64,000 nucleotides of DNA from Verrucomicrobiia bacterium (GCA_035945675.1 DASZAB010000025.1:1108-65107), one strand, 5' to 3'; positions 6,935-12,960 are shown, counted from the stretch's first letter. A program made the numbers and translations. Notes: generated from the sequence alone by a model not told the origin.

Positions 6935-7011
6935 TGGCGCGCCCGCCGCGATTCGAACGCGGGACCACCTGCTTAGAAGGCAGATGCTCTATCCAACTGA
7001 GCTACGGGCGC
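6935..7011 (-). tRNA. tRNA-Arg (anticodon UCU), CCA encoded
   Basis: The reverse complement is GCGCCCG TA GCTC AGTTGGATA GAGC A TCTGC CTTCTAA GCAGG TGGTC CCGCG TTCGAAT CGCGG CGGGCGC GCCA. It folds by hand into a full cloverleaf; all four stems pair, and the TCT anticodon is preceded by U33. Confidence 0.95.
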
Positions 7012-10027: not shown

Positions 10028-10795
10028 GTGAAAAGTAATGTTGTACCAAGCCGTGTCGTTTATCTCGGAGTTGTTATTTTGGCGGCGATAACGTTTTCCT
10101 CGACGCAGTTGAATGCCACGGGGATAATCTACCAGTTTGACACTCCTTTTCCTGCGGACCCCAGCCCTGCGGCTCCTGCTCCATGGATTACCTCTGATTT
10201 TGAAAATGTAAGCGGGGGAGTTAACCTGACTATTTCCGCGGTCGGATTGAGCGGCAGTGAATTTGCCAGCGAGATGTACTTTAATTTGGATCCGAGTTTG
10301 AGTTTGGATCAATCCTATCTGACGTTCAACGAAACGGCTTCCAGCGGCAGTTTTTCCGCCCCGACAATCTCTCAAGCGGCTGGAGATAATAATTACAAGG
10401 CGGATGGTGACGGCAAATACGATTTTCGTTTCAATTTTGGAACAGTCAGTGGAACGACTTTTGGATCCGGCGATTCCATAAGCTATTTTATCACCGGCAT
10501 TCCAGGTTTGATGGCCAATAGTTTTTCCTTCGAAAGCGAGCCGGCCGGTGGCAGTGGCCCCTTTTATGCCGCGGCGCACATTCAGGGCCTGGCCGGTGGT
10601 TTAAGCACATGGATCGAACCGGGCGGCGGCCCCGCCATCACTCCGGTTCCAGAACCTGAACCCATTGCTCTCCTGGCTGTTTCAGCAATGCTTTTGGCCG
10701 CCTTCCGCGTTCGAATGTTGATGCTGCGGAAAAGAATTTATGCTGTCGCGCAAAAAAACCGTTGCGTCAAAAGCATTAACTTTCGATCACGTTGA
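10028..10795 (+). CDS. PEP-CTERM sorting-domain protein
   Basis: N-terminal signal peptide. The C-terminal sequence VPEPEPIALLAVSAMLLAAFRVR has the PEP motif, a TM helix and a basic tail. The ORF continues 27 aa beyond it and overlaps the 3' end of the convergent NIL gene by 20 nt. Confidence 0.75.
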   Translation: MKSNVVPSRVVYLGVVILAAITFSSTQLNATGIIYQFDTPFPADPSPAAPAPWITSDFENVSGGVNLTISAVGLSGSEFASEMYFNLDPSLSLDQSYLTFNETASSGSFSAPTISQAAGDNNYKADGDGKYDFRFNFGTVSGTTFGSGDSISYFITGIPGLMANSFSFESEPAGGSGPFYAAAHIQGLAGGLSTWIEPGGGPAITPVPEPEPIALLAVSAMLLAAFRVRMLMLRKRIYAVAQKNRCVKSINFRSR

Positions 10796-11060
10796 TTTCC
10801 ACCGGCTCGACGTTCACGCCGTTTTTCTCCAGCCATTTGATAGCCGCGCCCACCTCGCTGCGCGCGCCATCCAGCTCCAGGCAGACGATGCCAATCTCGT
10901 CGGTCACGCTCGCCTGACGAATGTTGGTGACCACCTTGAACTTGTGGCCGACCTCCCAGATGAACGGCTTCTTGATGAGCCTGGGGGGATACATCAGCCA
11001 TAATCGCTTTTGCGTGGGTGAATTGGATTTCGTTGCCGGCAGTTTTTTCCTGGTGGCCAT
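10776..11060 (-). CDS. NIL-domain protein
   Basis: 94 aa. LIKKPFIWEVGHKFKVVTNIRQASVTDEIGIVCLELDGARSEVGAAIKWLEKNGVNVEPV fits the NIL domain pattern (the C-terminal regulatory domain of MetN). It is the last gene of the riboswitch-controlled operon. Confidence 0.7.
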   Translation of the reverse strand: MATRKKLPATKSNSPTQKRLWLMYPPRLIKKPFIWEVGHKFKVVTNIRQASVTDEIGIVCLELDGARSEVGAAIKWLEKNGVNVEPVEINVIES

Positions 11061-11063
11061 AGG

Positions 11064-11091
11064 ATTTAAATTAAAAATTAAAAGTTAAAAA
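11064..11091. repeat. AT-rich 4 x 7-mer array abutting the NIL gene start
   Basis: atttaaa|ttaaaaa|ttaaaag|ttaaaaa. It lies 3 nt upstream of the minus-strand ATG at 11060. Confidence 0.55.
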
Positions 11092-11163
11092 TGCAGAATG
11101 GATTTCAGCCGCCGGACGCTTCCCCGGCCCATTTTAATTTTGCGTTTTTCATTTGCATTGGCT

Positions 11164-11439
11164 CTAGCCTCCGGCAATGGCCGGAATGATGCTGATTTCG
11201 TCGCCGTCTTTGAGTGGAGTCTGCTTGTTTTGCAGGAAGCGGATGTCTTCCTCGTTCACATACACGTTCACGAAACGGCGCACTTCGCCCTTTTCATCCA
11301 CCAGCCGTTCCTGGATGCCAGGGTAGCGCGATTGCAGTTCGGCGATGGCGTCGCCGACGGTGGCGGCGTTGACTTCGACCAACTCCTCATTGTTCGTCAA
11401 CTTGCGGAGCGGGGTTGGGATGCGGACTTTCTTTGGCAT
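11164..11439 (-). CDS. ThiS/MoaD-family sulfur-carrier protein (C-terminal Gly-Gly)
   Basis: 91 aa ending in ...ISIIPAIAGG-stop. It has the beta-grasp-like pattern V.VNAATVGDAI..L. It starts 4 nt after the thrC-like stop. Confidence 0.8.
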   Translation of the reverse strand: MPKKVRIPTPLRKLTNNEELVEVNAATVGDAIAELQSRYPGIQERLVDEKGEVRRFVNVYVNEEDIRFLQNKQTPLKDGDEISIIPAIAGG

Positions 11440-11443
11440 AAAT

Positions 11444-12700
11444 TCAAACGTTTACTCTTTCTTCCTGCGCCAGCAGCGCTTCAAATTCGCGCAGACTCGG
11501 CTTGATTTCGCGCGGCTTGCCCAGGTAGCCGTCCACGGCGTCGAGCGTCTTCAGGCCGTTGCCGGTCACGCAGAGAACGGCGGAATCATCCCGCGGAATT
11601 TTGCCCGAGGCAATCAGTTTCTTGGCTACGCCCACGGTCACGCCGCCGGCGGTTTCGGCAAAAATGCCTTCCGTCTCGGCCAGCAATTTGATCGCGTCGC
11701 GAATCTCGTCATCCGTCACATCTTCCGCCGCCGCGCCGGTGTCCCGCATGACCCGCAGTGCGTAGAAACCGTCGGCCGGCGTCCCGATGGCGAGCGACTT
11801 CGCAATCGTGTTCGGCTTGACTGGTTTGAAGAAATCCAATCCGGCCTTTTGCGCCGCAGAAATCGGTGAACAACCGGTTGCCTGCGCACCGTGAACCGCA
11901 TATTTTGTCTCCGACACCAGGCCGAGCTTGATGAATTCCTGGTAGCCTTTCTGGATTTTGGTCAGCAGCGAGCCGGAGGCCATCGGCACGACGGTATGCC
12001 GTGGGATGCGCCAGCCGTATTGTTCGGCGATTTCATACGCCATGCTCTTGGAACCTTCGGCGTAATACGGCCTCATGTTTACGTTCACAAACGCCCAGCC
12101 GAACTTGCCGGCAATCTCGGCGCAAAGCCGGTTCACCTCGTCGTAATGGCCTTTGATGCCGATGACTTTCGCACCATAAATCAACGAGTTCAGGATTTTA
12201 CCGTGCTCCAAATCATGCGGAATGAACACATAGGATTTAAGTCCGGCGCTGGCGGCGTTGGCCGCGACGGAATTCGCGAGGTTGCCGGTCGAGGCGCACG
12301 CGACCGTGTCGAAACCGAGTTCCTTTGAACGGCTCAAGGCGACGCTCACGACGCGGTCTTTGAACGACAGGGTGGGGTAGTTCACCGTGTCATTCTTAAT
12401 CCATAACTCACGGATGCCCAGCTTCCTGGCGAGCCGGTCGGCCTTCACCAGCGGTGTGAAGCCGACCTGCAAACCAACGGTCGGGTCGTTCGCCACCGGC
12501 AACAGTTCACGGTAACGCCACATCGTTTGGGGACGTGATTGCACCGCCGCTTTGGTGAGCGACTTTTTGATGCGCTCGTAATCGTAAACAACTTCCAGCG
12601 GGCCGAAGTCAAATTCGCAGACGTGATTGGCCGCAAGCGGATACTCGCGTCCACATTCGCGGCACTTCAGCGCCTTCATGTAACCGTGATGTTCACTCAT
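11444..12700 (-). CDS. Threonine-synthase-family PLP enzyme (ThrC-like, with an N-terminal Zn-ribbon)
   Basis: LKCRECGREYPL..HVCE zinc ribbon; PLP-lysine motif PTLSFKDR; ASTGN; fold-type-II PLP pattern throughout. The start is set at the ATG at 12700 (MSEHHGY). The function may be homocysteine synthesis rather than threonine synthesis (see findings). Confidence 0.85.
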   Translation of the reverse strand: MSEHHGYMKALKCRECGREYPLAANHVCEFDFGPLEVVYDYERIKKSLTKAAVQSRPQTMWRYRELLPVANDPTVGLQVGFTPLVKADRLARKLGIRELWIKNDTVNYPTLSFKDRVVSVALSRSKELGFDTVACASTGNLANSVAANAASAGLKSYVFIPHDLEHGKILNSLIYGAKVIGIKGHYDEVNRLCAEIAGKFGWAFVNVNMRPYYAEGSKSMAYEIAEQYGWRIPRHTVVPMASGSLLTKIQKGYQEFIKLGLVSETKYAVHGAQATGCSPISAAQKAGLDFFKPVKPNTIAKSLAIGTPADGFYALRVMRDTGAAAEDVTDDEIRDAIKLLAETEGIFAETAGGVTVGVAKKLIASGKIPRDDSAVLCVTGNGLKTLDAVDGYLGKPREIKPSLREFEALLAQEERVNV

Positions 12701-12790
12701 AACTATTTTTTTGGCAGCCGCCGACGTTGGTCGGCGCATTATTCAGTTGGCGCGGACTGACGTCCGCGGCTACAAACTCAATTGGGGCAA

Positions 12791-12822
12791 CAAAAAGGCC
12801 CCGACTCATGGCGAGAAGGGGC
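12791..12822 (-). terminator. Intrinsic terminator forming the expression platform of the SAM-I riboswitch
   Basis: On the minus strand, GCCCC-uucucgccaugaguc-GGGGC is followed by CUUUUUGUUG. The cuucuc in the loop region is complementary to the 3' strand of riboswitch P1 (gagaag), which offers an antiterminator alternative. Confidence 0.6.
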
Positions 12823-12840
12823 TGACAAAACTTGCGCACG

Positions 12841-12960
12841 CTTCTCATTTTCCCCCGACACCCGTCAGGGCTGGAATTGGCACCTGGCCGCCCCGAACGC
12901 ATTCGGAGCCGGTTGCCGTGGCTTCATCGGGCCAGTCCCTCAGCCACTCTGCATGAGACC
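12841..12960 (-). promoter_or_regulatory. SAM-I (S-box) riboswitch aptamer
   Basis: The minus strand reads UCUCAUGCAGAGUGGCUGAGGGACUGGCCCGAUGAAGCCACGGCAACCGGCUCCGAAUGCGUUCGGGGCGGCCAGGUGCCAAUUCCAGCCCUGACGGGUGUCGGGGGAAAAUGAGA. This matches the invariant SAM-I core (GAGGGACUGGCCCGAUGAAxCCxGGCAACC ... GGUGCCAAUUCC ... GAAAxAUGAGA) with a closing P1 UCUCAU/AUGAGA. A TTGACA hexamer lies upstream at 13005-13010 (minus). Confidence 0.9.

Follow-up and report, generated by a model that had tools for sequence, protein, structure and literature searches.

A SAM-I riboswitch, a threonine synthase paralogue, a sulfur carrier and a NIL-domain protein in one Verrucomicrobiia operon: probable thiocarboxylate-dependent homocysteine synthesis

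The DNA analyzed here is a stretch of 64,000 nucleotides from Verrucomicrobiia bacterium (GCA_035945675.1 DASZAB010000025.1:1108-65107), called the window below. Its minus strand carries a riboswitch of the S-adenosylmethionine (SAM) class SAM-I, followed by metM, which encodes a paralogue of threonine synthase (ThrC), by metO, which encodes a small sulfur carrier, and by a gene for a protein with a single NIL domain (Table 1). Exact copies of the three proteins are deposited in GenBank from a Verrucomicrobiae metagenome-assembled genome (MAG), as HEV2434725.1 (MetM, named 'threonine synthase', as had been anticipated for this gene), HEV2434724.1 (MetO, 'ubiquitin-like small modifier protein 1') and HEV2434723.1 ('NIL domain-containing protein'). 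The nearest genomes are soil and peat MAGs of Limisphaerales (Verrucomicrobiota subdivision 3). The start codon of metM is common to 80 relatives of the gene and lies 141 nt downstream of the end of the aptamer. Between the metM stop and the metO ATG lie exactly 4 nt (ATTT), and metO and the NIL gene are 103 nt apart. On the minus strand between these genes a terminator scan found no terminator-like site, and in several relatives the NIL start lies only about 8 nt past metO. Therefore, the three genes most likely share one transcript.

Table 1. Positions of the riboswitch operon and of other features in the 64,000-nt window
Feature	Position	Strand	Details
SAM-I aptamer (S-box), RF00162	12842-12959	-	Rfam cmscan 84.5 bits (gathering threshold 44.4), E 1.6e-18
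GAGAAG, P1 3' side, proposed antiterminator strand	12841-12846	-	complementary to CUUCUC, 12818-12813
Intrinsic terminator	12789-12822	-	hairpin 12822-12798 (GCCCCUUCUC-GCCAU-GAGUCGGGGC), U tract 12796-12789
Long G+C-rich hairpin between terminator and metM start codon	12714-12773	-	predicted in the leader fold
metM, ThrC-paralogous enzyme dependent on pyridoxal phosphate (PLP), with N-terminal zinc ribbon	11444-12700	-	418 aa from ATG at 12700; PALP 1.6e-67
metO, ThiS/MoaD-fold sulfur carrier	11164-11439	-	91 aa; ends ...AIAGG-stop; PF02597 2.3e-20, 73.4 bits
NIL-domain protein, single-domain, basic N-terminal tail, third gene of the operon	10776-11060	-	94 aa; PF09383 38.4 bits (cut-off 24)
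Convergent open reading frame	10028-10795	+	255 aa; no Pfam match
tRNA-Arg, anticodon TCT	6935-7011	-	sole tRNA of the window

The original prediction had placed a complete SAM-I core in the leader at 12841-12960 (-), followed by a terminator/antiterminator platform, and both parts held up. The match to RF00162 spans all of the model (positions 1-108 of 108). P3 and P4 covary with compensating changes among 34 aligned relatives, and the covariance model made from their alignment recovers SAM-I elements in Actinobacteria and other phyla. The hexamer CUUCUC, which is complementary to the 3' side of P1, sits in the 5' arm of the terminator, whose inner part was also picked up by the terminator scan. 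The terminator hairpin and its U tract are kept in all 77 distinct leaders (median free energy -14.2 kcal/mol), with compensatory changes in the stem of four of them (L041, L043, L047 and L065). The P1 hexamer pairs at six of six positions with the hexamer of the terminator arm in 76 of the 77 leaders, and this pairing survives in the compensatory variants GAGAUG:CGUCUC (three leaders), GAGAUG:UGUCUC (one) and GAGACA:UGUCUC (one). Folding of the whole leader was uninformative (z = -1.7), and the platform was established from the leader comparison instead; a scan for sigma-70 promoters returned nothing upstream of the riboswitch. As far as sequence comparison can tell, the leader is a classical S-box OFF switch acting through transcription termination, the binding of SAM itself being inferred. 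The same aptamer stands 5' of metM in 78 of 80 Limisphaerales loci, in 21 loci of other phyla and in 80 of 80 actinobacterial loci, that is, in at least 179 loci across phyla. An arrangement in which the same aptamer precedes the same gene in so many loci is not due to chance.

The long G+C-rich hairpin ahead of the metM start codon has homologous copies at the same place in four relatives (L001, L010, L012 and L017) and one copy elsewhere in L068. Other relatives have unrelated long palindromes at this position, for example a GGTAGGGACGCCGCG...CGACCCTACC family and a GCCACAGAG...CTCTGTGGC family. No second copy of the hairpin was found in the window, so that the label of a repetitive extragenic palindromic (REP) element is unproven; these hairpins and palindromes may be REP-like, or they may form part of a leader structure that is conserved.

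The enzyme encoded by metM has in common with canonical ThrC (2zsj, 1uim, 6cgq, 2d1f) the PLP fold, the SFKDR lysine motif and the O-phosphohomoserine substrate family, and solved ThrC chains match its catalytic core at E values of 1e-45 to 1e-54. Unlike canonical ThrC, however, it carries an additional N-terminal zinc ribbon of about 55 aa, is placed under SAM regulation, differs at many clade-fixed positions and coexists with a true thrC in other genomes. The window MetM scores 188 bits against Aquifex ThrC (2zsj), whereas a canonical ThrC encoded beside a MetM homologue scores 478 bits. In nine Nitrospirota loci such a second ThrC-like gene directly follows the NIL gene, and its product and MetM share only about 36% identity. 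When 43 MetM sequences are aligned with 11 of canonical ThrC, 35 clade-fixed differences emerge, that is, positions at least 90% conserved within each group and differing between the groups. The positions of Thermus thermophilus ThrC T88, S155, N157 and R160 are L, N, R and Y in all 43 MetM sequences; in the window protein L141, N208 and Y213 stand at the positions of T88, S155 and R160, three residues that we take to hold the phosphate of substrate or product in ThrC. The GNAGN loop of ThrC is replaced by ASGSL in the window MetM and in all or nearly all of the 43 sequences. The zinc ribbon is present in every MetM, with C13, C16 and C28 invariant; its fourth ligand is Cys in 38 of 43 sequences and Asp in Limisphaerales, the window protein (D31) included. 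Judged by these comparisons, MetM is a ThrC paralogue distinct from canonical ThrC, which agrees with the earlier suspicion that the first gene is no ordinary threonine synthase. Assignments of MetM as cysteate synthase, CysM or threonine dehydratase were rejected, with scores far below the curated cut-offs (NF008735, the CysM model, reaches only 36 bits).

The product of metO is the GG-ended carrier of ThiS/MoaD type that had been noticed 4 nt behind the first gene. The best solved relatives of the window protein are the CysO-type carriers 4n6e_B (E 5e-21) and 3dwg_C (E 7.6e-21), and true MoaD chains (1vjk, 3rpf) match at only about 1e-3. It passes the models NF041918 (SAMP1) and TIGR01687 (archaeal-type MoaD) and stays below the cut-offs of TIGR01682 and TIGR01683. 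By these scores, the carrier is nearer to the carriers of amino acid synthesis (CysO type) than to MoaD or ThiS proper. Since MetO ends exactly at its GG, trimming of the C-terminus would be unneeded. Two Verrucomicrobiota loci (L094 and L112) have two copies of MetO in tandem.

A route of this kind has been described for Streptomyces albulus, first by Hasebe et al. (2024, Appl Environ Microbiol 90:e01247-24, PMC11497804), a report known here through the papers that cite it. According to two of these (bioRxiv 10.1101/2024.10.14.618325; PMC12172450), the ThrC homologue MetM, which is frequently annotated in error as threonine synthase, forms homocysteine from O-phosphohomoserine with sulfur donated by the MetO thiocarboxylate, and MoeZ and Mec are accessory enzymes; PMC12172450 also places a SAM riboswitch 5' of S. 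albulus metM. The same components (MetO, Mec, MoeZ and MetM) are listed for the pathway by GapMind 2026. This is the Streptomyces route to which the original prediction had pointed.

The counterpart in Actinobacteria was sampled with a tblastn search of PLSDB and a genome scan. In PLSDB, a locus of Nonomuraea gerenzanensis consists of a SAM-I element, a 56%-identical metM, a GG-ended carrier and then groEL. A scan seeded with the Nonomuraea MetM gave 80 loci, about 50 of them from Streptomyces, or 81 with the Nonomuraea locus. SAM-I precedes metM in 80 of 80 of these, and metO is adjacent in 78 of 81. Window and actinobacterial proteins are 53-57% identical over the full length of MetM and 44-54% identical in MetO. 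Like the S. albulus genes, those of the window have the order SAM-I element, ThrC-paralogous PLP enzyme with zinc ribbon, and GG-ended ThiS-fold carrier. By these likenesses, the window metM and metO are orthologues of the actinobacterial riboswitch-metM-metO unit. Differences are the Asp in place of Cys as fourth zinc-ribbon ligand and the NIL gene after metO; within 4 kb no NIL, E1 or JAMM gene was found in any of the 81 actinobacterial loci. The PLSDB entry of the Nonomuraea locus (NZ_LT559118.1, our L157) is an 11.85-Mb chromosome filed as 'plasmid I' with only 10 annotated features, in which tblastn finds four ThrC-like places, one of them metM.

The CysO-CysM-Mec+ system of Mycobacterium tuberculosis (3dwg) is another known likeness, in which a thiocarboxylated ThiS-fold carrier feeds a PLP enzyme of fold type II whose substrate is an O-phospho amino acid. 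The enzyme is there of the CysK/CysM type and makes cysteine from O-phosphoserine, whereas that of the window is a ThrC paralogue. In such systems (CysO/CysM/Mec+ and HcyS/HcyD) the amino acid is formed as an adduct on the carrier, and the CysO-cysteine adduct is cleaved by Mec+.

The NIL gene follows metO in 68 of 80 Limisphaerales loci. Relatives of the NIL protein were sought exhaustively among 1.84 billion cluster representatives, which gave 563 related clusters; an ordinary protein search had listed near-identical relatives only. Further loci came from a genome scan seeded with MetO-NIL fusions, and since these were selected for MetO plus NIL, they show the breadth of the association and not its frequency. 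They belong to Desulfobacterota, Sumerlaeota, Nitrospirota, Planctomycetota, Omnitrophota, Methylomirabilota, Armatimonadota, Zetaproteobacteria, Chthoniobacterales and others, and the order metO-NIL is conserved in 10 or more groups of phylum level. Nearly all have MetM just upstream, 55-73% identical to the window MetM. A SAM-I element stands 5' of metM in 21 of 66 such loci, namely in Verrucomicrobiota, Desulfuromonadales, Sumerlaeota, Acidulodesulfobacterium, Zetaproteobacteria and Binatia, and not in Nitrospirota or Planctomycetota.

In 14 loci MetO and NIL form one uninterrupted reading frame, in which the NIL part begins 5-15 residues behind the GG of the carrier. Such fusions make up protein clusters P0152, P0180, P0181, P0213 and P0254, whose MetO part ends in AIAGG. 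In other loci MetO ends in GG, GGN, GGR or GGTR and NIL begins a few bases later. Another type of fusion joins NIL to a Prok-JAB domain (clusters P0226 and P0266). These fusions place NIL physically at the C-terminus of the carrier or on the peptidase of the carrier. A structure model of a natural MetO-NIL fusion has confident domains (predicted template modelling score, pTM, 0.77) joined by a disordered GG linker (predicted local distance difference test, pLDDT, below 50 at residues 89-92).

Directly after NIL, a ThiF-type E1 of 267 aa is conserved. Further conserved neighbours are a Prok-JAB peptidase (JAMM genes occur in 23-28 NIL-containing loci), TusA, an Rrf2 regulator and a HomK-like phosphomutase homologue, together with aspartate kinase and homoserine dehydrogenase. 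In Thermodesulfovibrionia the order is hom-tusA-E1-JAMM-metM-metO-NIL-thrC-homK-ask (Nitrospirota loci L134, L136, L137, L141, L143-L146, L149 and neighbours). This supercluster joins both fates of O-phosphohomoserine, with the whole branch point in one cluster. GapMind 2026 has proposed a homoserine phosphotransferase, HomK, with which the phosphoglycerate-mutase-like gene of the cluster agrees.

Three Nitrospira loci (L116, L118 and L130) have an extra PALP-type gene upstream of E1-metM, about 24% identical to MetM and possibly CysM-like; this arrangement would suggest one carrier for both cysteine and homocysteine synthesis. Moreover, the spacer between metM and metO holds inserted genes of 0.3-4.6 kb in about 38 of the 80 Limisphaerales loci (L001-L080). 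The inserts are mostly unrelated to one another and lie mostly on the operon strand. Pfam domains among them are NYN, HEPN, DUF1828/1829, PDZ and NHL-repeat, and several inserts are without a match. No shared sequence resembling a recombination site was seen at the flanks of the inserts, only the AT-rich leader (...AAAATTGAAATTTAATTTATG) that is kept before metO despite the inserts. Within a riboswitch-controlled operon, the spacer thus seems to be a hotspot of accessory genes.

The NIL protein of the window is modelled by AlphaFold2 (pLDDT 81) as a beta-alpha-beta-beta-alpha-beta fold. Its ten best matches in the PDB are without exception NIL/C2 domains at the C-terminus of methionine-type ABC ATPases, and seven come from Escherichia coli MetN, with a root-mean-square deviation (rmsd) of 1.5 Å for 3dhw and 1.5-2.4 Å over 3dhw, 3tuz (the selenomethionine-bound form) and 3dhx, at about 28% identity. 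MetN binds L-methionine across the dimer of its C2 domains, with a hydrogen bond to N295; the N295A exchange abolishes binding, and A299 is part of the strand through which the two C2 domains pair (PMC6233128). The domain had been described beforehand as the methionine-responsive domain of MetN, which agrees with this work. In the alignment, the counterparts of MetN N295 and A299 in the window protein are N46 and A50; among 135 aligned sequences, for the most part representatives of 50%-identity clusters, 81% keep the Asn and 82% the Ala. Unlike the C2 domain of MetN, the window protein is not the C-terminus of an ABC ATPase, and it has an arginine, R48, and a basic N-terminal tail (MATRKKLPATKSNSPTQKR). 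No Cys is conserved in the family, the single Cys of the window protein being non-conserved, which makes a role in persulfide relay unlikely. Among the relatives are also tandem NIL-NIL proteins of about 165-185 aa (P0144, P0151, P0171, P0176, P0183, P0184 and P0190) and proteins with long Lys/Ala-rich N-terminal tails that resemble histone H1 (up to about 80 aa in P0157).

NIL domains have a second known link to homocysteine. In methanogens the NIL/ferredoxin protein MA1822 takes part in homocysteine synthesis (PMC5764234; PMC12068725), as had been noted in the original prediction, and its NIL domain has been proposed to bind methionine for product inhibition (PMC12068725). The L-aspartate semialdehyde sulfurtransferase of methanogens and Desulfovibrio (DUF39/COG1900 protein MA1821 with MA1822) resembles the window system in forming homocysteine and in including a NIL domain. 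However, NIL is the only Pfam match of the window protein, which is without the ferredoxin domain, and its partner is a ThrC paralogue for O-phosphohomoserine rather than a DUF39 enzyme for aspartate semialdehyde. The JGI name 'L-aspartate semialdehyde sulfurtransferase ferredoxin' for such a 94-aa protein is therefore a mis-transfer.

We put at roughly 0.8 the probability that the locus is a SAM-repressed operon for the synthesis of homocysteine from O-phosphohomoserine with a protein thiocarboxylate as sulfur donor (the MetM/MetO route), extended by a NIL protein. The interpretation first offered for the locus is, at the level of sequence, supported. The riboswitch-metM-metO core is a new member of the system published in 2024, and the NIL gene makes it a variant. 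With SAM bound, P1 of the aptamer would hold GAGAAG, and the downstream hairpin with its U tract would terminate transcription; without SAM, GAGAAG would pair with CUUCUC of the 5' arm of the terminator and the polymerase would read into metM-metO-NIL. By orthology, an E1-like enzyme with its gene in another part of the genome would adenylate and thiocarboxylate MetO at its C-terminal GG. MetM, in which the phosphate- and water-handling residues of ThrC type are replaced, would eliminate phosphate from O-phosphohomoserine via PLP and add the MetO thiocarboxylate at C-gamma, giving homocysteine. The least certain step concerns NIL, which may be a dimer-forming amino-acid-binding module, similar to MetN C2, on the carrier branch (MetO and its JAMM peptidase). 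It would most likely be a sensor of methionine or homocysteine and would add fast feedback at the protein level to the transcriptional control by SAM.

Several observations weigh against this interpretation. The E1 that charges MetO (MoeZ in S. albulus) and the JAMM hydrolase (Mec) have no copy in the window or in the 80 closely related loci, where tblastn found no relative of E1, JAMM, TusA or canonical thrC; the operon had already been described as lacking the first two. The orthology to S. albulus MetM is one step removed, since it rests on loci of other Streptomyces species. The antiterminator pairing spans only 6 bp. R48 of NIL is 95% conserved and has no counterpart in MetN, where Ile stands at this position, so that the ligand of NIL may not be methionine. 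The fusion model was built on only 5 sequences. Furthermore, NIL is missing from all actinobacterial loci and is thus not required for the chemistry.

If the first gene were an ordinary threonine synthase and the carrier served molybdopterin or thiamine synthesis, the neighbourhood would be a coincidence. MetM does pass TIGR00260, the thrC equivalog (279.8 bits, cut-off 167.1), and the carrier passes NF041918 and TIGR01687; the public names, threonine synthase and molybdopterin synthase sulfur carrier, say the same. But this account can hardly be right in view of the riboswitch at so many loci, of the clade-fixed differences that include the positions of T88, S155 and R160, and of the canonical thrC that adjoins metM in the nine loci. 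The carrier is, moreover, closest to CysO and not to MoaD, and no moaE or thiG-like gene is among the conserved neighbours. We suggest tentatively, and at somewhat less than an even chance, that in most lineages outside Actinobacteria thiocarboxylate-dependent homocysteine synthesis has the single-domain NIL protein as a true third subunit, one that senses methionine or homocysteine and controls the C-terminus of the carrier.

NIL might also be a purely structural partner that binds the MetO tail as MoaE binds MoaD and that protects or hands over the thiocarboxylate, with no role for methionine. The short linkers between the carrier GG and NIL in the 14 fused loci speak for such a partner, as does the likeness of MetO-GG-NIL to the MoaD-MoaE fusions cleaved by JAMM that are described in the abstract of PMC8832034; R48, missing from MetN, could bind a carboxylate or thiocarboxylate, and the fusion model with its disordered linker is compatible. 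Yet the pathway of Actinobacteria does without NIL, no Cys is conserved in the family, and NIL keeps the Asn and Ala of the MetN methionine site, for which a pure adaptor would have no use; a structural role of this kind is rather unlikely. It is more doubtful still that NIL serves as a substrate-recognition module for JAMM, recognizing a homocysteine residue left on the MetO C-terminus after the MetM reaction. By analogy to the adduct-cleaving systems, the Prok-JAB-NIL fusions, the JAMM genes in 23-28 NIL-containing loci and the binding of methionine by the same fold in MetN (PMC6233128) would fit such a module. However, it presupposes a hypothetical MetO-homocysteine amide, and loci of Verrucomicrobiota, Methylomirabilota and Armatimonadota have NIL and no JAMM nearby.

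Around the operon, the 5' neighbour is a gene for adenine phosphoribosyltransferase. On the other side, the convergent 255-aa reading frame shares 20 nt with the 3' end of the NIL gene, and the C-terminus of its product (...VPEPEPIALLAVSAMLLAAFRVRM...) resembles, by eye, a PEP-CTERM sorting signal.

In the literature searched, no paper links NIL to MetM/MetO, although Hasebe et al. (2024), known through citing papers, could mention it; nor does the pathway description of GapMind 2026 connect the two. Description of the route dates only from 2024, and public records continue to misname its genes, so that metabolic reconstructions wrongly predict methionine auxotrophy or miss the pathway. Besides the names of the window records, MetO is elsewhere called 'molybdopterin synthase sulfur carrier subunit' and NIL 'ABC-type methionine transport system ATPase subunit'. 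Affected are abundant soil and peat Verrucomicrobiota, Nitrospirota, Planctomycetota and others. By this comparison of loci, the MetM/MetO route is widespread outside Actinobacteria, and there it is usually accompanied by the additional conserved NIL, a domain that the unrelated homocysteine pathway of methanogens carries as well. The natural MetO-NIL and JAMM-NIL fusions offer material for testing the hypothesis on this uncharacterized component. If NIL is the third subunit suggested above, it would gate JAMM processing, E1 charging or delivery to MetM, the repeated fusion and fission exactly at the Gly-Gly of the carrier would be the evolutionary trace of this role, and end-product feedback would act on a carrier protein, not on an enzyme.

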